From NCBI GenBank assembly GCA_964399295.1, contig CAYNQD010000001.1, positions 86,454 through 150,453 on the forward strand: DNA of 64,000 nt, in the 5' to 3' direction. The notes beneath the pieces were generated by a model, which saw only the letters and a list, made by a program, of their open reading frames with translations, made no database searches and had not been told where the DNA came from. Source of the DNA: an uncultured Candidatus Saccharibacteria bacterium (GTDB taxonomy: Bacteria > Patescibacteriota > Minisyncoccia > Phycocordibacterales > UBA918). The translations under genes were made by a program, and so were the position numbers. Numbering within the stretch: position 1 is the first letter of the stretch; each line of letters begins with the position of its first letter. Below are positions 27,424 through 43,478 of the stretch, piece by piece.

Positions 27424-27924
27424 TTAGCTCGGATTTAGAGCGGTCTTAACCTTATCGGCTAACTCTTGAGAATTAAATGCTCCGTGGTTCTGTATTCTCA
27501 AAAGAGGCATGCCTGCACCCTTAAGAATACGCTCAACTTCCTGGTCCCGATCTTGTCTGTCGGGACGGTCGTGCGATTTGTCATCAAGCTCAATAGCCAA
27601 CTTCGGAGAAATGTAAGCCTTATCGCAAAGAACAAAATCTACAGACTTCTGGCTTACATGCCTGAAAGCGGCTCTCCAGTTTTGACCTACCACTTTGTGC
27701 TCGAGGAGTGTTGGCAGATGCACTTGAGCAAAGATTATGTAATCTTGACCGACAGCTTGAGCTAAAGCGTCATAGAACTCATGCTCTGCTTTAGTAAGAA
27801 ACCAGTTGCGGCGTTTATAGTCATACTTCGGCTTTTCATCTTGGATGTCGAACCCTCCCTTTAAAAGTCCTGCGACTATACCGGCAACGATAATTATTCC
27901 GATAAGTATGTAAATTAATGTCAT
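27424..27924 (-). CDS. Membrane-anchored DUF2726-like (restriction-endonuclease-fold) protein
   Basis: N-terminal TM helix (LIYILIGIIIVAGIVAGLL). The remainder resembles the DUF2726/NERD-like nuclease-related fold (FVLCDKAYISPKLAIELDDKSH). Confidence 0.35.
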   Translation of the reverse strand: MTLIYILIGIIIVAGIVAGLLKGGFDIQDEKPKYDYKRRNWFLTKAEHEFYDALAQAVGQDYIIFAQVHLPTLLEHKVVGQNWRAAFRHVSQKSVDFVLCDKAYISPKLAIELDDKSHDRPDRQDRDQEVERILKGAGMPLLRIQNHGAFNSQELADKVKTALNPS

Positions 27925-27975
27925 GGTGTTTATATTTTAACAAAATATGAATTTATTTACATTGACTCCCGTTGA

Positions 27976-28485
27976 TTACTTCTTTGGCCTGTCTCCCTTC
28001 AACAATCTCTCAAACGCCTCAAGGTTACCCATGGCATCATGAACTGGATGATGATCGTGCTTTGTTATGCGCAATCTTTTCCAAGATGATGCATCCTTGA
28101 AGTCTCCGATTAAGCCAGCATAAAAGTCGCCGATTCTGCGAGCGGAATATCCGAATGGATTCTTGCCAAGCGTTCGATGAAAGCTGTCATTGATCCATTG
28201 CCAGTCAAAAGCCGGATTATCACTGACAAATTTAGGTCTTTCTTCACCACATATCTCTTTCAACCACGCATCAAAATTTTCAAATACCTCTTTTTCATCA
28301 AAGACTATACCCGTCGCTATTTTGAACTCAGGATTTTCGGGGTCCGGCTTTCTTTCAACCAACACTCCATGAAAAGTAGCTTTTGATGGATATGCGACCG
28401 CACCAAATTCAGTGAGCTGTCCCATGCTCGGACACTTCCCGTTTGCCTCACAGTCTACAAATATTAAATTCTTTAAATCTTCCAT
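27976..28485 (-). CDS. DEDDh-family 3'-5' exonuclease (DnaQ/RNase T-like)
   Basis: FVDCEANG (Exo I D-x-E) and HDHHPVHDAMGN (Exo III H-x4-D). 169 aa. Confidence 0.6.
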   Translation of the reverse strand: MEDLKNLIFVDCEANGKCPSMGQLTEFGAVAYPSKATFHGVLVERKPDPENPEFKIATGIVFDEKEVFENFDAWLKEICGEERPKFVSDNPAFDWQWINDSFHRTLGKNPFGYSARRIGDFYAGLIGDFKDASSWKRLRITKHDHHPVHDAMGNLEAFERLLKGDRPKK

Positions 28486-28568
28486 ACAGACATTTTAACT
28501 CTTGTGGAAAATTACGCATAATCTGAACTACTAGACTTCCACAAACCTTCTCGGTATGTTCGTGTGCT

Positions 28569-28886
28569 GTGGAAGAAGACATGGATGAGGTCCGCAAAGC
28601 CGCAGAACAAGTGAGGTTTCCGTTCAACCGATACGAGATACTGAATCGGCTTTCCTCTCTTCCGGAACCAAAGGCAAAAATGAAGAAAGCTCTCAAAGAT
28701 AGGATGAGGCACTTAGCGGCCGCTTATGTCTCACTGGCCACTTTTGTTGACGATGAAGACATAGAATTTTCATTTAAATACAAGAAAAGCCGGAAAACAC
28801 GAGCAATTTACCTTAAGGTGATCAAGAATATTAAAAAGGCGCAAAAAGAAATGTGGCAATTCAAGCCCCTAGAGCATATTCAATAA
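28569..28886 (+). CDS. Hypothetical small basic protein
   Basis: 105-aa ORF, no recognisable motif. Directly upstream of the MTase gene. Confidence 0.3.
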   Translation: MEEDMDEVRKAAEQVRFPFNRYEILNRLSSLPEPKAKMKKALKDRMRHLAAAYVSLATFVDDEDIEFSFKYKKSRKTRAIYLKVIKNIKKAQKEMWQFKPLEHIQ

Positions 28887-28895: not shown

Positions 28896-30917
28896 TTGAA
28901 ACAAAAAAATTTAAGGTATAATTGTCTTAACGCTATGCAAACCTCAATCTTAAAAAACAAACAAATAGATTTAGAGGGTGCAGTCTCACTCTTGGGTGTT
29001 TCTTCTGCTACGGTAAGAAATTGGATAAGACATGATTATCTTGTCCCTGACAACAAGGAAGGTAGAAAGCTTCTGTTTGATCATGACCATGTTAGAGATT
29101 TAAAAGAGAAAATAGATTCGGGCGTAATAGACCGTTTGAACAAACGGGCAAACAAAAAGGGGTCTATAAATACGTTTATACCTGATGAATATACGGACAA
29201 CATCGATGTAATTTTATTTGTAGAAAAAATTATCGACCAAAATGTTGAGAATCAACTCGATCGTGACAGTATTCTTCTCTCGGTCGCTCTTAATCTGCTC
29301 AAAAAACAGCAATTGATTACATATACGGATACACTTTCAAAACTTTCCTACAAAAATAAAATTATAAAAGACGAACTAGCTTGGTGGCTGAATAAAACCC
29401 AGAGGAGCTTTTCTTTTGATAAGTATTCGCATCTCTTAAATATTCAATTACCCGAGGCTGGTGACTTATTGGGAGTCGTATATCAATCACTTGTGGCCGA
29501 AGGTAGTAAAGCTCAAGCAGGTTCTTATTACACCCCAAAAAGTGTAGTTGATGAAATCATTAATAGTCACATACAAAATGATTCACTAGTTCTTGATCCC
29601 TGCTGTGGAACAGGCCAATTTCTCTTGTCTGCAGCATCTAAGGTCAAAAATCCTAGAAACATATGGGGCTTTGACATAGATGAAACGGCTACAAGATTAG
29701 CTCGCTTAAATTTGCTAATAAAGTTTCCAGATGAAGAATTTTCACCAAATATATACCACAAGAATACCTTGCTCCATGTTCAATCGGGGGGGCTATTTGC
29801 TGACGATATCCCGAATTTTGATGTAGTTATCACAAATCCACCTTGGGGGGTCCATTTTTCTCAACACGAGACTGATCAACTTCAAGGTATATATCCATCC
29901 ATTCAATCAAATGAGTCTTTTTCGTATTTTCTCAATAAGGGATTAAGCCTTCTCAAAGACGGTGGAATATTGTCGTTTATCCTTCCTGAGTCAATCCTCA
30001 ATATAAAGACTCATCGAGATATAAGAGAAGTAATATTGAACACGTCAAAAATCCAAAAAATTAAGTTCTTGGACCGAGTATTTAAAAATGTTTTTACACC
30101 TGTAATAAGACTTGATGTAGTTAAAACTAGCCCAGCAGATGAGCATACTTTTGAAGCTGAAAAGTATGAGGATATTTTAAGAGTTGATCAGTCGAGATTA
30201 AAAAAGAATCATGACTATATTTTTGATGTATTTTCTAACGGTAGTGATATGGTTATCATCGACAAGGTGTATAGCCTTGAACATGTAACCCTAGAAAATA
30301 ATGCAGAATGGGCGTTAGGAATAGTGACTGGTGATAATAAAAAATATCTAAAAGAAAGAGAGACATCAGACAGCGAACCCATTATTACAGGCAAAGATGT
30401 CAAGAGATTTATAACCTGTAAGCCAAAAAACTTTATTAGGTTTGATATTGAGAAGTTTCAACAGGTTGCTCCAGAATATAAATACCGTACCGAGGAAAAA
30501 TTGATTTATAAATTTATATCGAAAGACCTTGTTTTCTCTTATGACAACAAAAAGACTCTAACTCTCAATAGTGCGAATATTCTTATACCTAAAATAGCTG
30601 GGTATCCTGTAAGGACCATACTAGCACTGTTCAACTCGAGTCTGTATCAGTTTGTGCATCAGAAAAAGTTCGCTTCGATAAAGGTTTTAAGAAGTGATAT
30701 TGAAAAGCTACCTTTGCCTACACTAAACAATAACCAACATCATGAAATAATTTCTCTGGTTGACAAGCTTCTTGATGAGGAAATTTCATCTGAGCAAAGG
30801 AAAGAAAAATATGTGGAGCTCGATAATCTGATTATGGACATCTTCTCCCTAAATGAGGACCAAAAAGCACATGTCGTGTCAAATGTGAAGATTTCTGATA
30901 AACTATTATCCGTATAA
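28896..30917 (+). CDS. N6-adenine DNA methyltransferase, gamma-class Eco57I family, with N-terminal excisionase-type HTH and C-terminal target-recognition region
   Basis: VSSATVRNWIRHDYLVP (HTH_17-like), GSYYTPKSVV, LDPCCGTGQFLL (motif I), VVITNPPWG (motif IV NPPW). 673 aa. Confidence 0.75.
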   Translation: MKQKNLRYNCLNAMQTSILKNKQIDLEGAVSLLGVSSATVRNWIRHDYLVPDNKEGRKLLFDHDHVRDLKEKIDSGVIDRLNKRANKKGSINTFIPDEYTDNIDVILFVEKIIDQNVENQLDRDSILLSVALNLLKKQQLITYTDTLSKLSYKNKIIKDELAWWLNKTQRSFSFDKYSHLLNIQLPEAGDLLGVVYQSLVAEGSKAQAGSYYTPKSVVDEIINSHIQNDSLVLDPCCGTGQFLLSAASKVKNPRNIWGFDIDETATRLARLNLLIKFPDEEFSPNIYHKNTLLHVQSGGLFADDIPNFDVVITNPPWGVHFSQHETDQLQGIYPSIQSNESFSYFLNKGLSLLKDGGILSFILPESILNIKTHRDIREVILNTSKIQKIKFLDRVFKNVFTPVIRLDVVKTSPADEHTFEAEKYEDILRVDQSRLKKNHDYIFDVFSNGSDMVIIDKVYSLEHVTLENNAEWALGIVTGDNKKYLKERETSDSEPIITGKDVKRFITCKPKNFIRFDIEKFQQVAPEYKYRTEEKLIYKFISKDLVFSYDNKKTLTLNSANILIPKIAGYPVRTILALFNSSLYQFVHQKKFASIKVLRSDIEKLPLPTLNNNQHHEIISLVDKLLDEEISSEQRKEKYVELDNLIMDIFSLNEDQKAHVVSNVKISDKLLSV

Positions 30918-30924
30918 TAAATAT

Positions 30925-31665
30925 ATGGATCCCCTTAAAGAAAAGCTAAATAAGCTCGTGGATGGGCTTTCTGCAGATAAAAAGGAAATAATTAAGACTA
31001 GACTTTCAAATCTCGTTTCGGTTTATCCTTTTAATGAATACGAATATATAATTTCTACCTTGTTAGGCTATAGGAAAATTACCATTGACGATTATAACCA
31101 GATTAGAGATGAATATATTGCTAAGAATATATACCTTAATATTTTCGAAATAGGATCGCCGAGGGGATTTGGTGAGCTATGGGCACAAGGACATCTTAAA
31201 GAGCTTGTACCTGAACTCGTAAAACCTACAAAGAAAATCGAAGAGAACTATAAAGGTGACTACGATTTTATATTACCTGGACAAGACCATCTTGTTCGAA
31301 TTGAGGTAAAAGCCTCAAGAGCTGTAGATGGTGATAGTGCAGAGCCTTTATATGTTAAAGCTTTGGCGTTCGACAGTAAGCAACCTTTCTGGATGAATTT
31401 TCAACAAATTAAACCGGCACACTGTGATGTATTTGTCTGGATTGCTGTGTGGCGTGATGTGATCAAGTATTGGGTCCTATCTTCCGACGAAGTAAAGAAT
31501 AATAAGTACTACTCAAAAGGTCAGCACCGAGGAAATGTTGGTGAAGGACAATTACATCTCAAAGATGACAATATCAAAGATTTTCAAATTTATGAGGTAA
31601 AAGCTGCTGAACTTAAAGATGCCATCGTGAGAGCTTATGAACGTCAAAAAAGTTCAAACGGATAA
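30925..31665 (+). CDS. Putative PD-(D/E)xK restriction endonuclease (cognate of upstream MTase)
   Basis: DYDFILPGQDHLVRIEVKASR gives D...E-V-K spacing typical of PD-(D/E)xK. Starts 7 nt after the MTase stop. Confidence 0.4.
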   Translation: MDPLKEKLNKLVDGLSADKKEIIKTRLSNLVSVYPFNEYEYIISTLLGYRKITIDDYNQIRDEYIAKNIYLNIFEIGSPRGFGELWAQGHLKELVPELVKPTKKIEENYKGDYDFILPGQDHLVRIEVKASRAVDGDSAEPLYVKALAFDSKQPFWMNFQQIKPAHCDVFVWIAVWRDVIKYWVLSSDEVKNNKYYSKGQHRGNVGEGQLHLKDDNIKDFQIYEVKAAELKDAIVRAYERQKSSNG

Positions 31666-31757
31666 GGCTATTTAGCCCCTAAATGCCCCTGTGTACGCTT
31701 TTCTGGCCCCATTCGGGGCTTCTTGCGTATATGCCAGATTTCGCCAACTTTTTAGAG

Positions 31758-31830
31758 GGTCCAAAGTAATTCCTACTCTTAGAAATCTAGGAGGTCCTAA
31801 AATCACAAGCATTGTAGGCCCAAAAGTAAT
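31758..31830. repeat. Three direct imperfect 13-14-nt iteron-like repeats
   Basis: gggtccaaagtaat (31758-31771), aggtcctaaaatca (31792-31805), aggcccaaaagtaat (31816-31830). Consensus GG(T/C)CC(A/T)AAAGTAAT. Confidence 0.5.
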
Positions 31831-31960
31831 GCAACACGTTTTTCACTTTTTGGAGCCGACAATGTAAATATTCCCGTTGCACGGAAAAAGCTGGACCACT
31901 TGCAACGGGGGTCTAGCTTTTTCCGTTTTCAGGAAGAACTACGCAAGGTCGAAACCCCTC

Positions 31961-32230
31961 ATGATAAGCAAACACGCATTCGAAGAATACAAGCAGATAC
32001 ACCGAGAAGAAATCGGCAAGGCTTTTTCCGATGATGTGCTTTTCGATGAGGCAACTAATCTGCTTACGCTCTTTGATCGCGTCTATCGGCCGATCAAGAA
32101 AGCGTGGCTCAAGGAATATGGACAACGAACAAGAGATAACTCCGATATGGCGAAACGAAAGACCGAGGTCGCCAGCCAGGATGGCTCTCAACGCAAATCA
32201 GAAAAACGCAAATCTGAAAAAGCAGATTGA
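31961..32230 (+). CDS. Hypothetical small protein (island sub-element)
   Basis: Likely start ATG at 31961 (MISKHAFEEY...). The track ORF from 31877 translates the upstream hairpins. Overlaps the next gene out of frame by about 50 nt. Confidence 0.3.
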   Translation: MISKHAFEEYKQIHREEIGKAFSDDVLFDEATNLLTLFDRVYRPIKKAWLKEYGQRTRDNSDMAKRKTEVASQDGSQRKSEKRKSEKAD

Positions 32231-33029
32231 TCAGATGGACAAGTCAAAGCTTCGGACCAAGCGCAAGCCGAGCAGATTCTTTGTCGAAAACGAATACGTG
32301 CATGGCGGATATGTAGCCATACTTCCTAACGCATGCTCAAGAATCTATTACGTTCTCTCGGTCCATTGTAATAACGAAACACAAGTGGCATTCCCGAGCA
32401 TCACGACTATTCAAGAGATGTCAGGCTGTACCAATCGCAACACGACCATGAAGGCTCTCTCCATACTTGAGTCGTATGGCATCATCGGAATCCTCAAGAC
32501 CAAAGGATTCAATATGGTGAATGTGTACGCCTTTCAAGCCACTCGATACTGGAAACCGATCCCTGAATGGAAAGAAAGGATGGAGAAATACAGAAACAAA
32601 TCGCAGTATCAATTCACCCCACATCGTAGTAACAAAAAGACCGACTATCGCAGTGACAGGGATGATACCCTAACTAACCTAAGTGATAACTCTCCTAATA
32701 CTATAACTAGCATCGGAGATGTCTTAAGAAAAATGCAGTTGCAGGGACCCGATTCGGTTGCTATTCAGGAGCCTTCTGGGCATAGTGTCGTCGGTCCAGC
32801 TAAGCATGAACTTTTACCCGTAATAACGGGTAATTTACGGGAACATCGTAATAACACCAGTGATACTACGATAGACCAAGAAAGCACCGTTAATAAACGG
32901 GAAGAAACGGTGGACACAGTCGAAAGTGCACCATTTATAAATGGAGAAAAATGGACTAAGGAAGATGAGGGCATTGGTCTGATGGACATCAACAATGAAG
33001 ACATCGGGCCAGGAAACGCAACATTATAA
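32181..33029 (+). CDS. Putative winged-helix DNA-binding protein (replication initiator/regulator of mobile element)
   Basis: HGGYVAILPNACSRIYYVLSVHCNNETQVAFPSITTIQEMSGCTNRNTTMKALSILESYGIIG resembles wHTH replication-initiator/regulator N-termini. Likely start at 32181 (MALNANQ). Confidence 0.3.
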   Translation: MALNANQKNANLKKQIDQMDKSKLRTKRKPSRFFVENEYVHGGYVAILPNACSRIYYVLSVHCNNETQVAFPSITTIQEMSGCTNRNTTMKALSILESYGIIGILKTKGFNMVNVYAFQATRYWKPIPEWKERMEKYRNKSQYQFTPHRSNKKTDYRSDRDDTLTNLSDNSPNTITSIGDVLRKMQLQGPDSVAIQEPSGHSVVGPAKHELLPVITGNLREHRNNTSDTTIDQESTVNKREETVDTVESAPFINGEKWTKEDEGIGLMDINNEDIGPGNATL

Positions 33030-33033
33030 AACT

Positions 33034-34707
33034 ATGAATAAAACACCACCAATCAAATACTTCCTCTACGCCCGCAAGTCGAGCGAAGCGGAAGACAGAC
33101 AGGCGGCATCCATCGATGCCCAAAAAGACGAGCTCCTGAAGATTGCCAAAGAGCAGGGCTTGGCAATCGTAGACGTTCTTGAGGAATCGCAATCGGCCAA
33201 GAAGCCAGGCAGACCAATCTTCAACAAAATGCTCGAACGAATTTACAAGGGCGAGGCCAACGGCATCATCTGCTGGAAATTGGATCGTCTCGCTCGCAAT
33301 CCGGTAGACGGCGGACAGATAAGCTGGATGCTCCAGCAAAGCGCCATCGCAGAGATCATCACCTTCGGCCGAACCTACTATCCGACCGACAACGTCCTCA
33401 TGATGCAAGTTGAACTTGGCATGGCCAACCAATATATTCGAGACTTATCAGTGAATGTAAAAAGAGGCTTGGCCAAGAAAGTCCGAGAAGGTTGGCTCCC
33501 GAGCATGTGTCCCGTCGGCTACATGAGCACTCCTGACAGAGAAAAGGGATTTAAGACTATCACCAAAGACCCCGACCGCTTTCCAATCGTGCGGCGCATC
33601 TTTGACCTCATGCTCACCGGCAACTACACGGTCCAACAGATATGGAATATCTCACGCAAAGAACTCAATCTCACCACTTTCAAACGCCGAAGCCTCGGCG
33701 GCAAACATCTCTCAAAGAGCGGCATGTATGCGCTCCTGAGCAATCCCTTTTACTACGGTTGGTTTGAGTATCCGTACAAAAGCGGAGAATGGCACAAAGG
33801 CTCACATGAGCCGATGATCACCGAAGACGAATTCAACAAGGTCCAGCAATACATGGGCAGAAAGAACAGACCGTCGCTCGCCAAGAACCTCAACTTCGCA
33901 TTTACCGGCCTCATGCATTGCGGCACCTGCGGTTGCGGCATCACCGCCCAAGCGAAAGTAAAGCGATGTAAGAATGGCAATGTCCACCACTACGTCTACT
34001 ACAATTGCACCAAGAAGAAAGTAGATGTGAAGTGTCCCGAGCAATGTATCGAGCTCAAGAACCTCGAACTGGATATCAAAGGCAAACTCAGCGAAATCAC
34101 CATTTCAGAGCGATTCAAGGATTGGGCGATCAAGCATCTGCATGAACTTCGCAAGACCGAGGCTGATAGCGACTCGGCGGTACTCAAAGGCAAGAACAAA
34201 GAGCTTGAGGAAATCACCAAGAAACTGCAATCGCTCACCCTCAATTTCACCTCGCCGGCCAATCAGGAGCGCACTCTCATTTCAGACGAGGAGTACCAGA
34301 ATTTGAAGATGGGCATGGTCCGAAGAAAGCTCAAGCTCGAAGACGAGCTCAAGGTGCAGAACAAGGAGATCTTGGAATGGGTGGAGCTGTCGGAACGGAC
34401 CTTTGACTTTGCCTGCTACGCCCACATCTGGTTTGAAAAAGGCGATGAAAAGACCAAGCGAGCCATCCTTTCATGCCTTGGCTCGAACCTCACTCTAAAG
34501 GGCAAAAAAGTCTTTGTAAATTACCATTCTTTCGTGAAGACACTCATAAAAAGTCGTCAGGCGGTTGAAGACGAATTAGAGAAGGTTAGAACCTCTAAAG
34601 TATCAAGCAATAAAAGACAAAACCCTACAAATTGTGAGGTTTCGTCACTAGGGCTCCCCGTCTCGAGTTGGGGACTTTTGCCGCCTTGCCCCGCAATGCT
34701 TTTTTGA
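33034..34707 (+). CDS. Large serine recombinase (resolvase/invertase N-domain plus recombinase domain plus Zn-ribbon)
   Basis: YFLYARKSSEAEDRQAASIDAQKDEL carries the catalytic Ser of Y-x-R-x-S. Cys cluster CGTCGCGITAQ...CTKKKVDVKCPEQC and coiled-coil C-terminus. The track ORF starts 32995, but internal Met 33034 is likely. Confidence 0.8.
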   Translation: MNKTPPIKYFLYARKSSEAEDRQAASIDAQKDELLKIAKEQGLAIVDVLEESQSAKKPGRPIFNKMLERIYKGEANGIICWKLDRLARNPVDGGQISWMLQQSAIAEIITFGRTYYPTDNVLMMQVELGMANQYIRDLSVNVKRGLAKKVREGWLPSMCPVGYMSTPDREKGFKTITKDPDRFPIVRRIFDLMLTGNYTVQQIWNISRKELNLTTFKRRSLGGKHLSKSGMYALLSNPFYYGWFEYPYKSGEWHKGSHEPMITEDEFNKVQQYMGRKNRPSLAKNLNFAFTGLMHCGTCGCGITAQAKVKRCKNGNVHHYVYYNCTKKKVDVKCPEQCIELKNLELDIKGKLSEITISERFKDWAIKHLHELRKTEADSDSAVLKGKNKELEEITKKLQSLTLNFTSPANQERTLISDEEYQNLKMGMVRRKLKLEDELKVQNKEILEWVELSERTFDFACYAHIWFEKGDEKTKRAILSCLGSNLTLKGKKVFVNYHSFVKTLIKSRQAVEDELEKVRTSKVSSNKRQNPTNCEVSSLGLPVSSWGLLPPCPAMLF

Positions 34708-34754
34708 CATTTTTATTTTACCACAACGACGCATCCTGAGCACCTTAAAATCGC

Positions 34755-35581: not shown

Positions 35582-36859
35582 CTACGGTAGTCTTTTTACA
35601 AAGCTAAATAGTTCATTATCAGCTTCATTCAAATCTTCAGCTGTGATCAGTTCGCAAATTTTTGTAGCTAACTTTACTTTTGAAATAGCTATACCATTAT
35701 GACAGTTAGGATCATTAGATAAATAATCCTTAACAATCTCGGTCCTTGTCTGTGTTGAGTTAAAAATCGACTGAAGGTGTCTTTCTGGATAGTAATACTC
35801 TATAGCATCTTTGGTTAAAGTTAGGATATGATCATCCTTTCCAATCAATAATTTCCACTCTCTTTCCAGCGTGTCTTTCAAAGGATTGTCTACTATTACA
35901 TAAGTACGATCCTTATATACTGGAACATTTTTTTCATTAAATTTTAAAAAATTAGTGATTGAATTTATTGCGTATTTAACGCTTCCGTTTCCTCCAGAAT
36001 TATGTACACCAAAGCCAGATTTACCTAAGAGACTAAGAATTTTCTTGATAAAACTAGTATCAGAAGGTCCTTCGAATATAAGCACTTTTTCAGGTAATAA
36101 GTAACTTGCGAGAGTGTTTCCTAATAATCTAAATATAACATCATTCATCTGCTCAACAGGTTTTATTTCAATTTTATCGTCCCCGTTTCGTTGGCAAATA
36201 TAATTATTTGATGGATCTTCTAGATCTAGGAAATGATGAGAATGTGTAGCAATAAAGATTTTTTTCTTCGGTAAAGCCTTATCTTTAATTGCTTGAAATA
36301 AATACTTCTGTAAATACGGTTCCAGGCCAAGCTCTGGCTCATCGATACATAGATATTCAACTTCTGGGTCGAACAGTCTGATGAAAATCTCGATTGTCGC
36401 TCTCATCCCAGAACCCTGTTTTGTAATTGAGTATTTGTTTGCCTTTAGTAACATAGGCGACGCTGAATTGTCTACATCCTCTCGCTCTTCAATGAGGGGA
36501 TTAGGAAAATATTTGTTATACCATTCAATAATTGGCTCTCGGTCCTTATCCTTGAGACTAAAGAAATCTTGCAAAGGCTGAATTTGGCGACTTGAGTTAT
36601 CATCCTCTTGTTGCAGTGTTCGTGAATTGTATACTGGCAGGTTCTTTTTATAGTCTTCTTTCATAGACCCTTCGCCTGTTAGTAGAGTTCTATTCACTGG
36701 TACAACATAACTTTTTTGATCCTGAAAAGTTTTAGCTATACTTCGAAGAAGTGTTGATTTGCCACCATTGTTAGAGCCAACGAAAATGAAGAAATTTTTA
36801 TCATCAGGCAGGTTTATGTTTTGTGTAGCGAACTGTTTTTCTTTATCTTGTATTTCCAT
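35582..36859 (-). CDS. OLD-family-like ATP-dependent nuclease (ABC-type ATPase plus TOPRIM)
   Basis: Walker A FIFVGSNNGGKSTLL, Walker B LCIDEPELGLEP, H-loop IFIATHSHHF. The C-terminal VLIFEGPSDTSF ... YVIVDNPLKD is consistent with the TOPRIM E ... DxD. Confidence 0.55.
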   Translation of the reverse strand: MEIQDKEKQFATQNINLPDDKNFFIFVGSNNGGKSTLLRSIAKTFQDQKSYVVPVNRTLLTGEGSMKEDYKKNLPVYNSRTLQQEDDNSSRQIQPLQDFFSLKDKDREPIIEWYNKYFPNPLIEEREDVDNSASPMLLKANKYSITKQGSGMRATIEIFIRLFDPEVEYLCIDEPELGLEPYLQKYLFQAIKDKALPKKKIFIATHSHHFLDLEDPSNNYICQRNGDDKIEIKPVEQMNDVIFRLLGNTLASYLLPEKVLIFEGPSDTSFIKKILSLLGKSGFGVHNSGGNGSVKYAINSITNFLKFNEKNVPVYKDRTYVIVDNPLKDTLEREWKLLIGKDDHILTLTKDAIEYYYPERHLQSIFNSTQTRTEIVKDYLSNDPNCHNGIAISKVKLATKICELITAEDLNEADNELFSFVKRLP

Positions 36860-36908
36860 ATCTGTTAGAAGAATTATAAATTATTGTAAAGTATTGTAAA
36901 CTATAGTA

Positions 36909-37823
36909 ATGGATCCGATTACCATTACTCAAAAGGACGAACTCGCGCTATTTAAGCTTTCTGAACAAGGTCCGCTTGGGAAAAGAGCATTATTTATATT
37001 TCAGTATCTCTTCATACGTGCTGACTTCAGGGACCTTGTAAAAGAGTTACGTGCGGAATTTGATATACCACCAGAAGGTTTTGACTTATCTGACCATAGT
37101 CAAAGTGAAATCGTAAGACAGAAGTACGTTGACACGGGCGGTTTCTCAGGAGAGATGATTTTTACAGCTAGTTTTAGACTAGATCCAAAAATGTCACATC
37201 GTATTGATCAGTTTATCGAGCAGTGTGGAGTTGTGCAGTATTCGCCTAATATGGATCTTGCAGAAGGTTTTATCTCAGCAATTGTCCGAGAGTACATTCT
37301 CCTTAATGATTTTATCGGTCTCTACAAAAATCGTTTTGGTCTGATTACTGTAGAACAGTACGATGTTTATGATCGCGAGGATGAGAATTACAGCGAAAAA
37401 GATGTTGAACTTCGTTTCTCTATACCGATCTCTGTGAAGAGGGATGAATTTAAAGAGTATATTGATAATATTTGGGACGTTCTTGAAAGCTCAAGAAAGG
37501 ATTTTTTACGTAAACAAGACCAAGTTCGTTTTCGTCCGAGAAATAACTTTGTCCGTGATGTGCTTATTTTGAATAAGTACATAGAGCTTGAGAATTTACC
37601 GAAGTCCAAACAAACGGCTCGTGGTATAAACTATTTAGATGTAGCTACTAGAAAAGAGCTTATTGCAGAAGGTCATTTAGATATACCTGATGAGGGGTCA
37701 ATAAGAAGTATAGTGAGTAGATTAAAACGTGAAATTAAAGAGAAGAGTGCATATTGGGAAGAACGAGAACCTGATCCAGAACCCGATCCAAACTACAAAC
37801 CATCAGATAATGATGGCTTCTAG
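36909..37823 (+). CDS. Hypothetical protein (divergent from OLD-like gene), acidic EPDPEPDP tail
   Basis: 304-aa ORF with no recognisable motif. Divergently arranged 50 bp from the ATPase-TOPRIM gene start. Confidence 0.3.
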   Translation: MDPITITQKDELALFKLSEQGPLGKRALFIFQYLFIRADFRDLVKELRAEFDIPPEGFDLSDHSQSEIVRQKYVDTGGFSGEMIFTASFRLDPKMSHRIDQFIEQCGVVQYSPNMDLAEGFISAIVREYILLNDFIGLYKNRFGLITVEQYDVYDREDENYSEKDVELRFSIPISVKRDEFKEYIDNIWDVLESSRKDFLRKQDQVRFRPRNNFVRDVLILNKYIELENLPKSKQTARGINYLDVATRKELIAEGHLDIPDEGSIRSIVSRLKREIKEKSAYWEEREPDPEPDPNYKPSDNDGF

Positions 37824-38076
37824 CGTTTAAGCCCACTGCTTAAATGCAACAATGTGGCTTTTAAACTGAACTCTTAAATTCAGTATTTTACTTTTGCCTA
37901 CTGTAATAACGTATGAGCAACCTTCGGGTTGTTTATGAGTTGTTCAGACACACAAAAGATAAGTATCTCTGATATGACCTGTGAAGACAGGGGTCGACTT
38001 GTTAGTGCTTTTGAGTGGCTGATGAAGCAGGATAAAAAGCAAAATCCTGCTCTTTATCAGGAAAAATACAGGGAAA

Positions 38077-39207
38077 ATGATCGACACAGTATGTCTCCTC
38101 ATTCCGAAGGACAAGATGAAATTTATCGAAGGTGTGTCTAATTGGGAACTCTATTCACGTACAGACACCTATCAAAAGTTTGTACGGAACCCTTCAAAGA
38201 TCGAGAAGAATACGGGTAAGTATTTTCCAAGACTGACGGGCTATAAAAGACGCTTCGGAGATGATGCAAATGTACGCATTGAGTTCTCGGTCCCGAAACT
38301 GCTTTTACTAAATAATCTCGATGAAGTTACTGAAAGTGACTTCTCGAGAATAGTAAATGTTTTATACGACCGTCTAACCGAAATGGGCGTAGTTATTCCA
38401 AAATCAGAGCTTAAAAGTGCGAATGTTAGCTCCGTTCATTATTCAAAGAATATCGCCCTGACTAACGGGTATACTGCCAGCTATATCCTTTCGGAGATTA
38501 ACAAGATTGATCTTAGAAAGAGCTTTGATTTCTCGAAGGCACGCTTCACAAATGATGGTCAGAGTTTGTACATTCACACTACAAGTCATCAGTTCGTGCT
38601 CTATGACAAGATTGCTGATTTAGCTAAGGGCAAGAAGCGAGCTATCGATAAGGATCAGACAATATACCAGCGGTCCTTGTTTGAACAGATAGATCAATCA
38701 TCAACCGAGGTACTTAGGTTAGAAGTAAGGCTGAATAAGAAGCAGAAGTTGAAAGAAGTGTTAGCTAAGTTCGGTCAAAATCAAACTCCGATCTTCTCGG
38801 ATATTTTCTCAGAAAAAATAAGCAAAAAAATCGTAGTGGATTATTGGAATACACTTATTAAAGCCAACAATCTAGCAGTACTCTCTTTGGACCTCAAACC
38901 CAAAGACCTACTACAGCTATTAATCCGATCCGAGTTTAAGGCGAAGCCCAATCGACTGCTATATCTCATAGGTTTACATTGCCTTGCACGGGACGGAACT
39001 GGTACAAGGCAATTACGATCTGTGCTCGAGAAGAAGTCTAGTGATAGAAGTTGGTACCGTATCTCAAGTGACCTCAAACTTCTAGGTGAACTTATTTCTG
39101 ATGATTATCTGAGAGATTGGGTCAAACATATCGATCAAGCACTAAAAGATTACAAAACATTTAAAGTTAATGAATATGCAAAACCGATCGCATCAAAAGA
39201 CTTTTAA
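38077..39207 (+). CDS. Putative replication initiation protein (Rep_trans/rolling-circle-like)
   Basis: 376 aa. Mobile-element context. Candidate catalytic SSVHYSKN Tyr motif. Weak evidence overall. Confidence 0.25.
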   Translation: MIDTVCLLIPKDKMKFIEGVSNWELYSRTDTYQKFVRNPSKIEKNTGKYFPRLTGYKRRFGDDANVRIEFSVPKLLLLNNLDEVTESDFSRIVNVLYDRLTEMGVVIPKSELKSANVSSVHYSKNIALTNGYTASYILSEINKIDLRKSFDFSKARFTNDGQSLYIHTTSHQFVLYDKIADLAKGKKRAIDKDQTIYQRSLFEQIDQSSTEVLRLEVRLNKKQKLKEVLAKFGQNQTPIFSDIFSEKISKKIVVDYWNTLIKANNLAVLSLDLKPKDLLQLLIRSEFKAKPNRLLYLIGLHCLARDGTGTRQLRSVLEKKSSDRSWYRISSDLKLLGELISDDYLRDWVKHIDQALKDYKTFKVNEYAKPIASKDF

Positions 39208-39451
39208 CACTTCATTTCTTAATCGAGTAATTACGTATAAAGAGAAGCTCAAGGAAGTCGAGACATCTTCCATTGAAGAGGTGTTAGAAAACTTCTCAAA
39301 AGATCTATACCCAGAGCAAGAATTAATCGTGTGGGAAATGATTAGTTTACATTATGAAAATGGCACTTTGATGCACCCAGAATGGGACTTAACTGCCAAA
39401 AAAGAGCATTATAAGTCAGTATTCGCTCAATCTTTCGGTATCAACGGGTAG
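39170..39451 (+). CDS. Hypothetical small protein
   Basis: 93-aa ORF overlapping the end of the upstream gene. No motif found. Confidence 0.25.
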   Translation: MNMQNRSHQKTFNTSFLNRVITYKEKLKEVETSSIEEVLENFSKDLYPEQELIVWEMISLHYENGTLMHPEWDLTAKKEHYKSVFAQSFGING

Positions 39452-39493
39452 TTACTAGGGATGTAAAGAATAGTAAAGTATAATAAAACACAT

Positions 39494-39670
39494 ATGGAGG
39501 AAAAAGAATTTTACACAGCGCAAGAACTTGCTGAAATGTTACGTGTGAACATTATGACAGTCTATAGGTATATAGATGCAAAAAAACTCAACGCCTACAA
39601 GTTTGGAAAAGAGTATCGTATTGATAAGGTTGAGTTTAAAAGTTTTCTAGAAAAGGCAAAAACAAAGTGA
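39494..39670 (+). CDS. Excisionase-family HTH DNA-binding protein (HTH_17/MerR-like)
   Basis: 58-aa ORF below the track cutoff: MEEKEFYTAQELAEMLRVNIMTVYRYIDAKKLNAYKFGKEYRIDKVEFKSFLEKAKTK matches the Xis/HTH_17 pattern. Stops 4 nt before the Dcm start. Confidence 0.6.
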   Translation: MEEKEFYTAQELAEMLRVNIMTVYRYIDAKKLNAYKFGKEYRIDKVEFKSFLEKAKTK

Positions 39671-39673: not shown

Positions 39674-40666
39674 ATGGCGAAACAAAAATTTACATTCATT
39701 GATCTATTTGCAGGAATTGGCGGTATTAGAATTGCATTTGATAATGTTGGCGGTAAGTGCGTTTTTACTTCTGAGATTGATGAGCAATGTCAGAAGATGT
39801 ATGAAAATTATTTTGGTGACAAGCCACACGGCGATATAACTAAAATTGATGCAAAGGATATTCCCGATCACGATATTCTAACTGGCGGTTTCCCTTGTCA
39901 GGCTTTCAGTATCATCGGTGGGATGAAGGGTTTTGCGGATACTAGAGGAACGCTTTTCTTCGATGTTGAGAGGATATTAAAAGAGAAGCGACCAAAAGCA
40001 TTTCTACTAGAGAATGTAAGAAATTTGACTGTGCACGATGGGGGTAGAACTTTTCAAACCATAAAAGATAGACTGCTCGATTTGGGTTATTTTGTGCACT
40101 ATAAAGTTCTTAACGGACTGGATTTTGGGGTTCCTCAAAAAAGAGAGCGAATAATGATTGTTGGTTTTGAAAAAAATTATCCCTTTGTCTTTCCTGATGG
40201 TTCTAAAGTGAAGAAAAAGTTATTAACTGATATTCTTGAAGACGAAAGTACGATTGACCCTAAGCACTTTGTCAGTGATTACGTTAAGCAAAACTTGCAA
40301 CAAAAGTTAATCGACCAAAATAAGCAGAGACCTGATTATCCAACTATTTGGCACGAAAATAAGTCAGGCAATATTGGTATTCACGAGTTTTCTTGTGCTT
40401 TGAGGGCTGGGGGTTCTTATAATTATTTGCTAGTTAATGGAACCCGAAGACCAACTCCTAGAGAGATGTTTCGGTTACAAGGTTTTCCAGATAATTACCC
40501 TATAATTGTTCCTTTAACCCAAGCTAGAAAGCAGGCTGGGAACGCTGTGGTTGTGCCAAAAATTCAAGCTGTTGCTGAAGCAATGATTGAAGCAATGTCA
40601 AAGAAACCTATTTCTTCATTAGATCAAGATGAAGTTTCCAATGTTGTCTTGGAGTTTAGTAAGTAA
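39674..40666 (+). CDS. DNA cytosine-5 methyltransferase
   Basis: FAGIGG (motif I), GFPCQAFS (motif IV, catalytic Cys), ENVRNL (motif VI), VPQKRER (motif VIII). 330 aa. Confidence 0.85.
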   Translation: MAKQKFTFIDLFAGIGGIRIAFDNVGGKCVFTSEIDEQCQKMYENYFGDKPHGDITKIDAKDIPDHDILTGGFPCQAFSIIGGMKGFADTRGTLFFDVERILKEKRPKAFLLENVRNLTVHDGGRTFQTIKDRLLDLGYFVHYKVLNGLDFGVPQKRERIMIVGFEKNYPFVFPDGSKVKKKLLTDILEDESTIDPKHFVSDYVKQNLQQKLIDQNKQRPDYPTIWHENKSGNIGIHEFSCALRAGGSYNYLLVNGTRRPTPREMFRLQGFPDNYPIIVPLTQARKQAGNAVVVPKIQAVAEAMIEAMSKKPISSLDQDEVSNVVLEFSK

Positions 40667-40679: not shown

Positions 40680-41723
40680 ATGCCCGAAGAGAAAAAAGCA
40701 CTTGATAGTTTGATTAAAAAGTCTAGAGTGCACTTTTACAAGCCAATTCAGATTGCAGAAATTCTGCATCATAAAAGGAATGGAGCCGACATCGAACTCT
40801 CGGATCTTGAACAGTATCGTAATATATCCAAAAGATGGCGAGACGAGGTCTCAACTCGACTAATCGGACGAAGAAGCACATCTAGTCAAAAGTATCAGGA
40901 TAATCTTTTTGAGAATAACGCTATTCCGCCAAACATCTTGGCGAAATTAGGTAGTGTAAATCAAGAAAGCGCAGGTGGCGTAGAAGCATATATTTACTAT
41001 ACGATGAAGGAGAAATTCTCAGAATTACATTCTGTTGCCACCTACATTGGAACTGCAACACCTGAGACATTTGACTTAGATGAAGTAGTAAATATTTTCA
41101 CAAGAACTGCAGGTTTAAAAAGAAGTATTGATAAGGTTTATGAAATCGCTGTTTATGCCTTGTTTGCGACTATTGTTAGGGCGTTGCGTGCAGAAATTAC
41201 GCTTGCTATTAAGAATGAGGACGAAGAAATCTTAGCTGACTTTAATACGTTTATAAAAAATGTTTTAGGGATTTCAGCAAACCAGACCCAGCTTACTGTA
41301 CCAGCTAACTTATATCGAGTAGGTGCTACAAATGCAGCAGATAGAGGCTTAGATATGTGGTCAAATTTTGGTCCTGTAGTGCAGGTTAAACACCTTACAA
41401 TCACTCCTGAAACTGTTGAGGATATAGCTGAGGGAATTGCGGCTGATAAAATAGTAATCGTCTGTCTTGATGCAGAAAGAGAAGCTATAGCGGTATTGTT
41501 GGCACAGGTTGGATGGGGTGAAAGAATTCAAGGTATCATAACTCTAAGTGATCTTCGAGAGTGGTATTTACTTTGTATGAGCGAAAAATACCGAGAAAAA
41601 TTAGGAGTTGCATTGCTTAGCGACTTACGAAGGGAGTTTGCAAATGAATTTCCTTCTGGAGCTGAATTAAACCCTTTTATTGCTGAAAGAAACTACCAGC
41701 AATCTTTCCCTGTAGGTTGGTAA
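40680..41723 (+). CDS. Putative type II restriction endonuclease (cognate of C5-MTase)
   Basis: 347-aa ORF 14 nt downstream of Dcm in the same orientation. No family-level motif recognised. Call is by operon context only. Confidence 0.35.
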   Translation: MPEEKKALDSLIKKSRVHFYKPIQIAEILHHKRNGADIELSDLEQYRNISKRWRDEVSTRLIGRRSTSSQKYQDNLFENNAIPPNILAKLGSVNQESAGGVEAYIYYTMKEKFSELHSVATYIGTATPETFDLDEVVNIFTRTAGLKRSIDKVYEIAVYALFATIVRALRAEITLAIKNEDEEILADFNTFIKNVLGISANQTQLTVPANLYRVGATNAADRGLDMWSNFGPVVQVKHLTITPETVEDIAEGIAADKIVIVCLDAEREAIAVLLAQVGWGERIQGIITLSDLREWYLLCMSEKYREKLGVALLSDLRREFANEFPSGAELNPFIAERNYQQSFPVGW

Positions 41724-41731
41724 GTTAAGTT

Positions 41732-43306
41732 ATGAAAGCAATAGTACTAGCTCGTGTATCTACTGAAGAACAACGTGAAGCTGGTAACTCATTGCCAGCA
41801 CAACAAGCGAGACTTATCTCTTACATTGAGAAATCATTCAGTAAGACAAACAATCAAAAATTAGTGCTCGAAAAAGAGTTCGTTTTTGACGAGAGTGCCT
41901 ATAAAGAGCATCGAAAAGAGTTTAATAAAATAACCGAGTACATTGAAGGTTTTAAAGAAACTGTAGCTCTTTGCTGTGATAAAGTTGACCGACTATCGAG
42001 AGACTTTTTAATCGGTCTGCCTGTGTTAGAGAGGTTGAGACGAGATGGAAAGATTGAGCTTCACTTTCCATCAGATAACTTAGTTCTACACCAAAATTCG
42101 CCTGCCACAGACCTTTTCCACTACAACATCGCCCTTGCTCTAGCCCAGTACTATTCAAACGCCATCAGTGATAATACTAAAAGAGCACTTGAACAAAAGC
42201 GAAGAAATGGAGAATGGACTGGTAAGGTACGTATAGGTTATTTGAACGTGTCGCTTGATGCTGAAAAACGCCTTCGAAAAGATATAATCATAGATCCGTT
42301 TAGAGGACCGCTTATTCAGAAGTTGTTTGAGCTGTATGCAACAGGCAACCATTCACTTGAAAGCGTTCGCTCCGAAATCATTAAACTTGGTTTGAGAAGT
42401 CTTGATGAAAATAAGCCTTCCAAAAGTAATATCGATCTAATTCTCAATGATCCTTTTTACTGTGGTATTGCTGTGTCGAAAAAGTACGGTAAGTTTGCTC
42501 ATCGCTATCCGAAACTAATTTCGAAAGAGCTTTTTGACCGATGCCAAGAAGTGCGAACTAAGAGAACCAATAACCGAAATAAGGTAGTCTCAAAGGATTT
42601 CATCTTCAAAGGGATGCTTAAATGTGCTAATTGTGGCTGTTCGATGAGTGCTGAAACGAAAGTAAAACCGAGTGGCAAATCCTATACGTATTATTCTTGC
42701 ACGAATGCCAAAAAAACCTGCAAAAAACAATACGTTACTGAGCAAGACCTCCTAAAGCCCATCTGGGACGTACTGGGACGTTTCGGAACGATTTCAGAGC
42801 AGGTACAGGCTGATCTAGTATCTGAGCTAAGAAAGACCACAGAAGCCGAAATTGAGTTCCATAAGGCACAATTAAACCGTATCCGAAATGAATACGAAGA
42901 ACTTAAGAAGAAGGACGATCGTTTGCTGGATGCTTATCTAGACCAGAGTATTACTAAAGATGTCTATGACAAAAAACATCAAGACTATGCTGACAAGCTC
43001 CAGCTCCTTGAGATAGAATTATCAGAGTACCGAAAAGCTGACTACGACTACCAAACAACCGTTGCTACAGTCATATCTTTGGCACGAAGAGCACAAGCCA
43101 TCTTCGATGGTTGTTCTGAAGTTGCTGAAAAGAGAGCGTTTTTGAATTTGATACTTCAGAACCCGACCGTAAACGGAAAAAAGCTAGATTTTACACTAGC
43201 TTCTCCGTTTAATTTGGTCCTTGATTTAGCTGACGTCTCTTCTGGCTCCGCAGGTAGGATTCGAACCTACGACCAATCGGTTAACAGCCGATTGCTCTAC
43301 CGCTGA
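41732..43306 (+). CDS. Large serine recombinase (second copy); 3' end overlaps tRNA-Asn
   Basis: MKAIVLARVSTEEQREAGNSLPAQQ resolvase motif with catalytic Ser. Cys cluster CANCGCSMSAETK...CTNAKKTCKKQ and coiled-coil. The last about 21 codons are read through the tRNA gene on the opposite strand. Confidence 0.8.
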   Translation: MKAIVLARVSTEEQREAGNSLPAQQARLISYIEKSFSKTNNQKLVLEKEFVFDESAYKEHRKEFNKITEYIEGFKETVALCCDKVDRLSRDFLIGLPVLERLRRDGKIELHFPSDNLVLHQNSPATDLFHYNIALALAQYYSNAISDNTKRALEQKRRNGEWTGKVRIGYLNVSLDAEKRLRKDIIIDPFRGPLIQKLFELYATGNHSLESVRSEIIKLGLRSLDENKPSKSNIDLILNDPFYCGIAVSKKYGKFAHRYPKLISKELFDRCQEVRTKRTNNRNKVVSKDFIFKGMLKCANCGCSMSAETKVKPSGKSYTYYSCTNAKKTCKKQYVTEQDLLKPIWDVLGRFGTISEQVQADLVSELRKTTEAEIEFHKAQLNRIRNEYEELKKKDDRLLDAYLDQSITKDVYDKKHQDYADKLQLLEIELSEYRKADYDYQTTVATVISLARRAQAIFDGCSEVAEKRAFLNLILQNPTVNGKKLDFTLASPFNLVLDLADVSSGSAGRIRTYDQSVNSRLLYR

Positions 43307-43317
43307 GCTACTGCGGA
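43243..43317 (-). tRNA. tRNA-Asn (anticodon GUU) with encoded CCA
   Basis: Minus-strand UCCGCAGUAGCUCAGCGGUAGAGCAAUCGGCUGUUAACCGAUUGGUCGUAGGUUCGAAUCCUACCUGCGGAGCCA. The 7-bp acceptor, D arm GCUC/GAGC, anticodon stem AUCGG/CCGAU with loop CUGUUAA, and T-arm GUAGG-UUCGAAU-CCUAC all form. Confidence 0.85.
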
Positions 43318-43478
43318 ATGTTTCTCTATTTCGTTTGTTTTGTTCTTGAACTTGAAGCTGATTAATTTGCTGATTCCTAATCAATCTAACCAATTCAGTC
43401 CAAGTGCTTGTATTGTACAGAAAAAAAATGATTATTCAACCTTTTCTGGTGGCTGTTTTGAAGGTTTGGTGTTGGTGG

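Follow-up and report, generated by a model that had tools for sequence, protein, structure and literature searches.

We analysed a window of 64,000 nucleotides from a Patescibacteria genome and found in it a strain-variable island of 15.9 kb (27316-43249) that adjoins the gene for tRNA-Asn. We interpret this island as a tandem array of integrative elements, each of which would have been inserted by its own large serine recombinase (LSR) at the extreme 3' end of the tRNA gene, and we put the probability of this interpretation at roughly 0.8. The sequence GCTCC, which occurs at 27311-15 (as GGCTC), 34653-57, 35466-70 and 43245-49, appears to bound three units: element A (27316-34656, 7.3 kb), cassette G (34658-35465) and element B (35466-43249, 7.8 kb). 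A first-pass annotation, made from the letters of the DNA, had proposed that elements bearing recombinases accumulated in tandem at a tRNA hotspot between 27424 and 43320. The att-type junctions mapped below and a sister strain that carries different cargo from 27316 onward bear out this proposal, and the range was essentially right: the left end moves to 27316, which puts it some 110 nt to the left of the DUF2726 stop codon, and the right end falls at the tRNA 3' end (43243-43249). The open reading frames (ORFs) between 27.4 and 43.3 kb were scanned against the Pfam, PADLOC, PHROGs and NCBIfam profile libraries, which recovered every gene named in that annotation, and tRNA genes were called with ARAGORN and Rfam. 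For comparison we used genomic and metagenome contigs of relatives (designated by L numbers), with Logan contigs and GTDB species representatives among the sources. The host appears to be a Parcubacteria/Kaiserbacteria-like bacterium of the candidate phyla radiation (CPR): its Fmt protein and that of Parcubacteria bacterium OLB19 share 73% identity, and the near relatives of the host are all Patescibacteria metagenome-assembled genomes.

The left boundary was located with a Logan contig of a sister strain (L166, SRR16797981, from the same sample series), which is 99.6% identical to window positions 12692-27315 and diverges immediately after TTGGCTC at 27315. Past this point L166 carries unrelated defence-type cargo (AlbA_2, a ParB-methyltransferase, another GIY-YIG gene and NgoFVII). 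Since the identity ends there, the boundary lies between 27315 and 27316, and the content of the site turns over at the level of strains. The left flank terminates in ...ACGACTTGGCTC, which would represent the displaced original 3' end and trailer of the tRNA-Asn gene, that is, an attL site made of the B arm plus the core. On the right, the gene order tRNA-Asn, Grx, PF1765-like, HPF, Fmt, Def, PriA and MurA is kept in more than 15 species-level relatives. Synteny ends at the tRNA; past it, each relative has different DNA, and the contigs of several relatives stop at this point. We checked for conservation of the entire block in all relatives and did not find it, either in L166 or in the others. 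In relatives L017, L020 and L024 the corresponding end of tRNA-Asn is occupied by three LSR lineages. The 3' end of the window tRNA, GGAGCCA (antisense TGGCTCC, 43243-43249), corresponds to attR of element B and contains the shared crossover core. The two flanking features are:

26080..27315, minus strand: left host flank, the DUF475/TerC gene with its upstream region (Pfam DUF475, E 1e-89)
43243..43317, minus strand: tRNA-Asn(GUU), intact and single-copy (ARAGORN; Rfam tRNA, 75.2 bits)

No direct repeat of a tRNA fragment of the type left by tyrosine integrases was detected at the island ends at a length of at least 10 nt, which is consistent with a core of 5 nt. Joining the two flanks predicts an ancestral site in which the DUF475 gene would be followed by 218 nt and then by tRNA-Asn, with the predicted attB junction sequences ACGACTTGGCTCCGCAGGTAGGATTCG and ACGACTTGGCTCCGCAGGTAGGATTCGAACC. 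The composition of the island was AT-skewed except between 31.7 and 34.7 kb, as had been noticed at first pass: the GC fraction was 0.428 +/- 0.028 in the backbone, about 0.38 in the cargo and 0.474 in the 31.7-34.7 kb module, and 1-kb GC windows differed between island and backbone (Mann-Whitney p = 0.007). Other occupants of the site were observed at L165:2744-7402 and L166:1-5900, with Fic, EcoRI-type methylase, GmrSD/HNH, AlbA_2, ParB-methyltransferase and NgoFVII genes as cargo; this variety suggests that the tRNA-Asn site is a general defence-gene hotspot in the clade.

The attachment sites were defined for the family of LSR2, the recombinase of element B. Homologues of LSR2 numbered more than 1400 at E<=1e-30, the best 120 being 58-77% identical, and those with a named source came from Patescibacteria. 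In 80 metagenome loci the LSR stop region lay about 10 nt from the 3' end of tRNA-Asn. Among 63 readable loci, tRNA-Asn was scored automatically downstream of the LSR2-type gene in 33, and in about 39 when some six were added by eye; two or three family loci adjoined tRNA-Gln and about 15 were followed by another element's P' arm, a conserved block of about 110 nt. The tRNA-Gln junctions (TTG/CTG) were seen at LSR2-family genes or fragments in L107, L145 and L150 with the same geometry, which suggests target switching within the family. The P' block was found at the left end of 13 elements, where it always begins with (T)(T/G)GCTCC. One and the same element (97% identity) is present in L101 and L102, whose left flanks diverge exactly at AATTTGGCTCC. 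Three types of junction could thus be recognised: attL (flank, GCTCC, P'), attR (LSR 3' end with the P arm, GCTCC, tRNA), and LSR-P' junctions, which represent attP in circles or tandem joints. A related element, L085, was recovered as a circular contig of 8858 bp with a terminal overlap of 123 nt, in which the LSR reads across the P-P' junction (with a tail as in P0048), and about 15 further LSR-P' junctions were seen in relatives. From P' to tRNA these elements measure 6-9 kb, as does element B. Their conserved order is P', minus-strand cargo (in some), a TATTGTAAA promoter, a variable first gene, c0, hyp376, hyp93 (in some), HTH_17, cargo (usually restriction-modification, RM) and the LSR. 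By these comparisons the LSR2 and LSR1 families would both be common across Patescibacteria.

In the window, an nhmmer profile constructed with 32 P' blocks from other loci gave a single match, at 35460-35567 (E 3.6e-14). As this lone match has its core at 35466-35470, element B is taken to span 35466-43249, and it would be a typical element of the LSR2 family. Its P' arm (P'_B) carries the T-arm-like sequence GTTCAGAAC 18 nt from the core, and the core itself abuts the start codon of the neighbouring GIY-YIG gene.

The proposed mechanism is as follows. GCTCC is the antisense of tRNA positions ~70-74, where the acceptor stem ends and is followed by the discriminator base and the initial C of CCA. 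Crossover would take place within this 5-nt core, at a dinucleotide that we infer. The tRNA would stay intact because the right (P) arm of the element resupplies its last bases. Each new element would enter at the tRNA-proximal core and push the older ones outward; given this mode of entry, element A would have arrived first, then the unit that is now cassette G, and then element B. An element would consist of core, P' arm, minus-strand cargo slot, promoter, replication and regulation genes, a second cargo slot, LSR, P arm and core. The replication genes would be a Rep_trans-like rolling-circle initiator with an Xis-like HTH protein in element B and an HTH_36 protein in element A. The elements may replicate as rolling circles, and the copies in this genome may be active. 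Recognition may involve a T-loop-like motif, GTTC(A)GAAC, whose distance from the core is 13 nt in the attB half-site (the tRNA) and 18 nt in the attP half-site (P'): all 52 tRNA-Asn genes had GAAC at +13, and 29 of the 32 P' blocks had it at +18. Structures of serine integrases place the zinc-ribbon motif 5 bp further out in attP than in attB half-sites. The model of Rutherford and Van Duyne for the phage A118/LI integrase reportedly places the recognition motif 5 bp further from the crossover in attP than in attB half-sites. The 5-bp offset of GAAC matches this expectation for the right-hand half-sites (B' and P'), to which the comparison applies; the left half-site of attB varies from locus to locus. 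The predicted attP junctions of elements B and A are GACGTCTCTTCTGGCTCCGCGGGATGGACGGGTTCAGAAC and GTCACTAGGGCTCGACATGGTATCCCAAATTG, respectively.

Element B contains the following features:

35466..35598, plus strand: attL of element B, with the core GCTCC (35466-35470) and the P'_B block (nhmmer P' profile)
35582..36859, minus strand: ABC ATPase of OLD/Gabija/PARIS type, 425 aa (Pfam AAA_15, AAA_21; PADLOC AriAB, GajA, PtuA and Old, E 1e-15 to 1e-11)
36865..39670, plus strand: conserved backbone of element B (promoter/operator, hyp304, c0, Rep_trans-like, hyp93, HTH_17)
36909-37823, plus strand: hyp304
37974-38141, plus strand: small ORF c0
38077/38116-39207, plus strand: hyp376, Rep_trans-like hallmark protein (fold similarity)
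39176-39451, plus strand: hyp93
39494-39670, plus strand: HTH_17, Xis-like
39674..40666, plus strand: C5-cytosine methyltransferase (Pfam DNA_methylase PF00145, E 1e-91; PADLOC MTase_II)
40680..41723, plus strand: HaeII-family restriction enzyme (RE_HaeII PF09554, E 5e-127, 338/338 positions; PADLOC REase_II)
41732..43306, plus strand: LSR2 (Pfam Resolvase PF00239 61.8 bits, Recombinase PF07508 48.6, Zn_ribbon_recom PF13408 42.4, all above cut-off)

The ATPase occupies the cargo slot between P' and the element promoter. An OLD-like ATPase-TOPRIM had been announced for this gene: the ATPase part stood, and the TOPRIM part was reduced to a weak match to PF20469 (OLD-like_TOPRIM, E 0.064, 14 bits against a cut-off of 23, residues 257-302 with an EGPSD motif), making an ATPase with a degenerate TOPRIM possible. 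No partner gene (GajB, PtuB or AriB) lies adjacent to it. Directly upstream of the first backbone gene, the AT-rich stretch 36865-36905 contains TATTGTAAA repeats; equivalent repeats precede the first gene in L082, L085, L111, L112, L114 and other loci, and this region is likely the promoter/operator of LSR2-type elements. Three genes of the island are unannotated. The hyp376 protein appears to have a rolling-circle Rep fold followed by an extra helical C-terminal domain of about 130 residues, and the Rep-like partner family of LSR2 comprises some 1250 unannotated proteins that are widespread in Patescibacteria. The C5 methyltransferase and the HaeII enzyme, whose genes are 13 nt apart, together make up a type II RM pair of the HaeII family. 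LSR2 carries the catalytic-serine motif ARVSTEEQ and its conserved part ends in ...LDLAD; its ORF closes with 64 nt (21 codons) of tRNA-Asn antisense, and the P arm occupies 43215-43242. Judged by domains and motifs, LSR1 and LSR2 both qualify as large serine recombinases, each at the right end of its own element. Nearly all cargo genes of the island are of anti-phage or nucleic-acid-targeting type, namely two type II RM systems, PD-T4-3, the OLD-like ATPase, the exonuclease and the DUF2726 gene.

Element A is of a different type, its recombinase LSR1 belonging to a second large family. From GGCTC/GACATGG onward, the DNA at its left end (P'_A) aligns with the DNA that directly follows the LSR1-family genes in L164 and L165. 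This block encodes, in frame, DMVSQIVTYWKENPLGAYLPNLRDGLYPVTKPTAKELARI, which matches the protein tails of the LSR1 homologues P0242 and P0263 (reading DIVRDIGTFWK..LPNLRDGLYPV...), whereas close LSR1 homologues (85-87% identity) end in ...EVSSLGL followed by tRNA antisense (RRQDSNL...). A site at 27309 had been suspected by eye and had gone undetected by the LSR2-type P' profile; it was later established as an LSR1-type P'. The homology of P'_A to post-LSR1 DNA, together with the presence of DUF2726 beside it in L165, argues that element A spans 27316-34656. Its features are:

27316..27423, plus strand: P'_A, left-end attachment arm (alignment with post-LSR1 DNA of L164 and L165)
27424..27924, minus strand: DUF2726, PD-(D/E)xK-like (Pfam PF10881, E 1e-30)
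27976..28485, minus strand: DEDDh-type 3'-5' exonuclease, cargo (PADLOC PDLC00753 Effector Exonuclease, E 8e-16; DEDDh, E 2e-4)
28896..30917, plus strand: N6A methyltransferase with N-terminal HTH and TaqI_C (Pfam N6_Mtase PF02384, Eco57I PF07669, TaqI_C PF12950; PADLOC MTase_II, 3e-134)
30925..31665, plus strand: restriction enzyme of the N6A pair (PADLOC REase_II, E 4.5e-72)
31666..34656, plus strand: recombination/replication module of element A (repeats, 89-aa ORF, HTH_36, LSR1)
~32181-33029, plus strand: HTH_36 protein (Pfam HTH_36; weak PHROG replication-initiator-like matches)
32995..34707, plus strand: LSR1 (PF00239 79.3 bits, PF07508 39.6, PF13408 24.1 against a cut-off of 25.3)

An 89%-identical copy of DUF2726 lies beside P' at the same position in L165, and this gene is probably a core gene of LSR1-type elements and not free cargo. 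The exonuclease, whose Pfam match (Rv2179c-like) is below its cut-off, has a 93%-identical counterpart downstream of an LSR1-type P' in L128, where LSR1-type and LSR2-type families are stacked in the reverse order to that of the window. The N6A pair qualifies as a type II RM system, consisting of a gamma-type methyltransferase with a target-recognition domain and an endonuclease. The module that follows contains imperfect GGYCCWAAARTMA repeats, located by eye around 31745-31835. LSR1 carries the catalytic-serine motif ARKSSEAE, its zinc ribbon scores slightly under the cut-off, and the P arm and core of the element, GTCACTAGGGCTCC, end at 34657. The same module is present in L164 (HTH_36 70%, LSR1 86% identity).

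Between the core of element A and that of element B lies a short unit without recombinase, cassette G:

34658..35465, minus strand: cassette G, between two GCTCC cores (34653 and 35466)
34755..35465, minus strand: PD-T4-3 GIY-YIG defence gene (PADLOC PDLC04031, E 2e-52, residues 3-234 of 236; PF22945, E 3e-20)

The GIY-YIG gene falls in this separate unit. It gave a full-length match to PD-T4-3 with an N-terminal GIY-YIG domain, and can be regarded as a putative defence gene; it is the sole content of the 0.8 kb up to the next core. The cassette starts with a decayed P'-like sequence, CCGTCTCGAGTTGGGGACT, and the ORF of LSR1 leaves its tRNA-like register at LGLP/VSS, after GGGCTCC at 34657. 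In relatives, two or three tandem P' blocks without recombinase were observed just downstream of tRNA-Asn (L030:13470-14906, L007:13413-17832, L004, L027 and L033). L030 and L007 contain three P' copies each, in L030 at a spacing of about 0.6-0.7 kb with one small gene per unit, giving them the appearance of cassette arrays.

A number of observations weigh against a tandem array of integrated elements. An empty site, with tRNA-Asn next to the DUF475 gene, was sought in relatives and in contigs of the same species and none was found, nor was any excised or circular junction seen for the strain of the window. In GTDB species representatives the DUF475 block did not occur within 10 kb left of the tRNA, although these relatives are too distant to reveal such an adjacency. 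All recovered contigs with LSR2 hold an identical array, and the circular contig L085 may be an assembled tandem duplication. The Rep_trans assignment of hyp376 is a tentative one, drawn from fold similarity at 11-13% identity. The history of cassette G as a former element is read from a degenerate P' that the P' profile does not detect. Finally, the N6A RM pair sits right before an LSR2-type LSR in other loci, where it is cargo of LSR2-type elements (L101, L102 and L112, 57% and 80% identity); element A may therefore be a hybrid with a replaced recombinase module.

This last point leads to an alternative in which the 31.7-34.7 kb piece (HTH_36 and LSR1) is an independent mini-element, located in or beside an older LSR2-type element (27.3-31.7 kb) whose recombinase it replaced; the island would then contain three or four elements, and not two plus a cassette. 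There is a step to higher GC content near 31.67 kb, just past the stop codon of the restriction enzyme, imperfect direct repeats are visible by eye at 31745-31835, HTH_36 and LSR form a compact pair in L144 and L164, and in L101, L102 and L112 the N6A pair is followed within 3-4 nt by the LSR2-type gene. However, no core or P' could be detected at 31666, and the 27316-27423 block is of LSR1 type, not LSR2 type, with DUF2726 next to it as in L165. The module is also GC-richer than its flanks and its own cargo in L164 and L165 as in the window, so that the GC step alone does not mark an insertion. We consider this alternative unlikely: the GC-richer piece, presented at first pass as a nested mini-element, reads best as the module of the 7.3-kb element that starts at 27316.

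It could also be argued that the array is a fossil, made of old insertions that are now immobile and vertically inherited, its LSR genes and att-like sequences being relics. The uniformity of the LSR2-carrying contigs is what this would predict; cassette G is clearly decayed, and the tail of the integrated LSR2, 21 codons of tRNA antisense, is in a frame unusual for the family. Against this stand the intact ORFs of both LSRs, with catalytic-serine motifs and full domain sets, the good preservation of P'_A and P'_B and the divergence of cargo GC from the backbone. The turnover of content also appears recent, because a 99.6%-identical sister strain already differs at the same junction. Taken together, this makes a fossil array rather improbable. 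A degraded prophage or phage satellite at the tRNA, in place of a plasmid-like integrative element, is suggested by the tRNA-adjacent integration, the Xis-like HTH and PHROG matches for several genes, but is very improbable, since no capsid, portal, terminase, tail or lysis gene occurs in the window ORFs or in more than 20 related 6-9-kb elements, an IMG/VR scan with LSR1 returned one distant hit, and the hallmark protein appears to have a rolling-circle Rep fold.

Both LSR ORFs extend across the core of their own attachment site, and the product of the recombinase gene should accordingly change with integration. LSR2-family C-termini share ...SPFNLVLELADSPNWL and then split into classes: 51 stop within a few codons, 45 continue with QDSNLRPID-type peptides and about 15 carry LVDKFRTLNW..IKSELQFSGIL. 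The QDSNLRPID-type peptides are tRNA antisense (W corresponds to CCA, DSN to the T-loop and PID to the tRNA-Asn anticodon stem), and 96/117 classified tails are tRNA antisense or stop inside it. Conservation of P' extends well beyond the half-site, and in the LSR frame the block has the signature of coding DNA: the entropy of its columns was 0.82, 0.55 and 1.27 at codon positions 1, 2 and 3 (permutation p ~1e-4), and among 22 distinct sequences there were 0 stops in the LSR frame, as compared with 34 and 66 in the other two. This signature suggests that excised elements should make a longer recombinase with a conserved tail of about 30 residues. The integrated copy would thus end in a few tRNA-antisense codons, while the excised circle would make the P'-tailed protein. 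In the reconstructed circles of the window, LSR2 is 545 aa long and ends in ...DWSQIQKELAFSGILNNYCLELR, and LSR1 is 594 aa long and ends like P0242. For LSR2, the P-arm spacer falls 1 nt short of its usual length and P'_B contains a 22-nt insert, which together restore the frame of the distal motif; this is suggestive, although such a restoration has a 1-in-3 chance of being a coincidence, which counts against the array interpretation. A function of this tail as a switch would be a further step. More broadly, the tRNA-Asn end of Patescibacteria may harbour a serine-recombinase cassette system, in which the attP-straddling LSR gene acts as a state sensor (long isoform when excised, short when integrated) and recombinase-less units made of core and P' are mobilised in trans as exchangeable defence cassettes, as in integrons. 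A state sensor of this kind would bias integration against excision. We offer this combined proposal as tentative, and on present evidence it is doubtful.

Partial LSR genes were also observed in relatives. Sixteen loci (L146-L161, e.g. L153:6050-6353 and L158:333-626) retain nothing of an LSR2-type gene but its final ~96 codons (~300 nt), and recombinase-less units in relatives often retain exactly these codons. The left boundary of the remnants is nucleotide-identical, (GG-NGR)/ATTACTAAGGAC, at the codons of the coiled-coil tip (the equivalent site in the window is 42947), and their right end is the GCTCC core; the flanks differ on both sides, the left partner in L158 being a P' block. In a clustering of the region, remnants are interspersed with the 3' ends of intact genes (L153 and L084, for example, are 97% identical), indicating that they arose repeatedly from different LSR lineages. 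They hint at a second, precise process acting on LSR genes, and leave the map of the window unaffected since its LSR2 is intact. From these 3' fragments, with the last 100 codons chromosomal, we had considered a crossover inside the LSR gene at codon 405. This was rejected as the normal site of the family: the window contains no second fragment, intact genes show no mosaicism there, L144 joins at a different codon, and attL, attR and the P-P' junction all map to GCTCC. L144:1102-3170 contains a compact pair of HTH_36 and an LSR that is 31% identical to LSR2 over residues 2-409; this LSR continues out of frame, with a deletion of about 45 nt, into a 74%-identical LSR2-type 3' end by tRNA-Asn, and looks like a hybrid or decayed junction of two recombinase lineages.

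Islands and integrative elements at tRNA genes, including tandem arrays, are well known (Islander/TIGER; PMC7192596), and in the survey of the tycheposons of Prochlorococcus 910/937 elements use tyrosine integrases, a minority of tRNA-associated elements having LSRs (10.1101/2020.12.28.424599). Like the island described here, these insert at the tRNA 3' end and spare the tRNA, restore the core at both ends, which leads to tandem stacking, carry adaptive or defence cargo and in many cases their own replication proteins, and differ between strains at the same site. They differ in using mostly tyrosine integrases and duplicating a long 3' part of the tRNA, whereas the present island has LSRs, an identity of about 5 nt, no tRNA copy, a diverged T-arm mimic located 5 bp further out, and a CPR bacterial host. 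SCCmec and related SCC elements of staphylococci, inserted at the 3' end of rlmH by Ccr LSRs as tandem defence-carrying cassettes (PMC11470126), resemble it in LSR insertion at the 3' end of a conserved housekeeping gene, in stacking and defence cargo, and in recombinase-less units bounded by the same short repeat. In contrast to SCC, the target here is a tRNA gene, the recombinase gene lies at the very end and across attP, and a Rep_trans-like gene is present. The best NCBIfam matches of LSR1 and LSR2 were CcrA/B/C and XisF, at 77-84 bits compared with Ccr cut-offs of 700-900, which indicates that they are not Ccr orthologues. The 'suicidal' tyrosine integrases of SSV type, from archaeal viruses and plasmids, target tRNA genes and have the attachment site inside their own ORF (PMC7253208, PMC8371274); there also integration alters the integrase gene product, but the archaeal gene is split into two inactive halves, whereas here a bacterial serine enzyme would exchange only its last ~20-35 codons and keep its catalytic and DNA-binding domains intact. 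Compared with the Rep_trans rolling-circle initiators and relaxases (pT181/RepD and NicK type) of plasmids, ICEs and IMEs, hyp376 has the additional C-terminal domain mentioned above, and searches of PDB, Pfam, NCBIfam, PHROGs and PADLOC with its sequence gave no match, hence no sequence-level membership of PF02486. With integrons only the logic of a cassette array is shared, as the island contains no tyrosine recombinase and its units are bounded by GCTCC and P'. No paper was found that connects serine recombinases with elements of Patescibacteria; the two element families, their att sites at nucleotide level, the T-arm mimic in P', the attP-spanning ORF with its conserved tail and the Rep-like hallmark thus appear new.

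CPR bacteria have tiny genomes, and little is known of their mobile elements or of how they acquire immunity. The two abundant families described here, which would target a tRNA end by serine and not tyrosine recombinases and which carry RM and other defence cargo, offer a concrete route for the exchange of defence genes in this group. Their recombinase/attP/attB triplets are candidate tools for bacteria that have no genetic tools, and an integrase C-terminus that depends on integration is a directly testable hypothesis. Stacked elements would also explain why assemblies break at tRNA-Asn.

The target tRNA gene has a further peculiarity in relatives. In many of them a group I intron (RF00028, 62-84 bits) of 215-600 nt splits the tRNA-Asn anticodon loop (35/36), as in L002:12097-12738, L012:13183-13499, L020:2421-3066, L024:11500-11790 and also L014, L015, L023 and L032. 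The intron of L020 holds an HNH-like ORF, LSR ORFs run antisense through exon 2 into the intron, and ARAGORN misses the intron-split tRNA-Asn genes. Group I introns in tRNA-Asn of Patescibacteria have already been published (PMC13011429).

Some features of the flanks were also observed. On the left, the DUF475/TerC gene is bracketed by a perfect 16-nt inverted repeat (TTATTGGGGCGGTGGG at 26029-26044 and CCCACCGCCCCAATAA at 27151-27166, 1.1 kb apart); a riboswitch was considered upstream of this gene and Rfam found none. On the right, a perfect 29-nt inverted repeat with a 3-nt loop (GGACAAATTGGCCATAAGGGGGCGGCAAC) is located at 43479-43539, between tRNA-Asn and the glutaredoxin-like gene. Rfam gave for this repeat a spurious sub-threshold miRNA match only, and three independent Logan contigs (L163, L170 and L171) terminate in it. 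Further right, MurA (EPSP_synthase fold, 47964-49463, minus strand) is fused to an N-terminal XRE-type HTH, a fusion that is kept in relatives at 73-88% identity.

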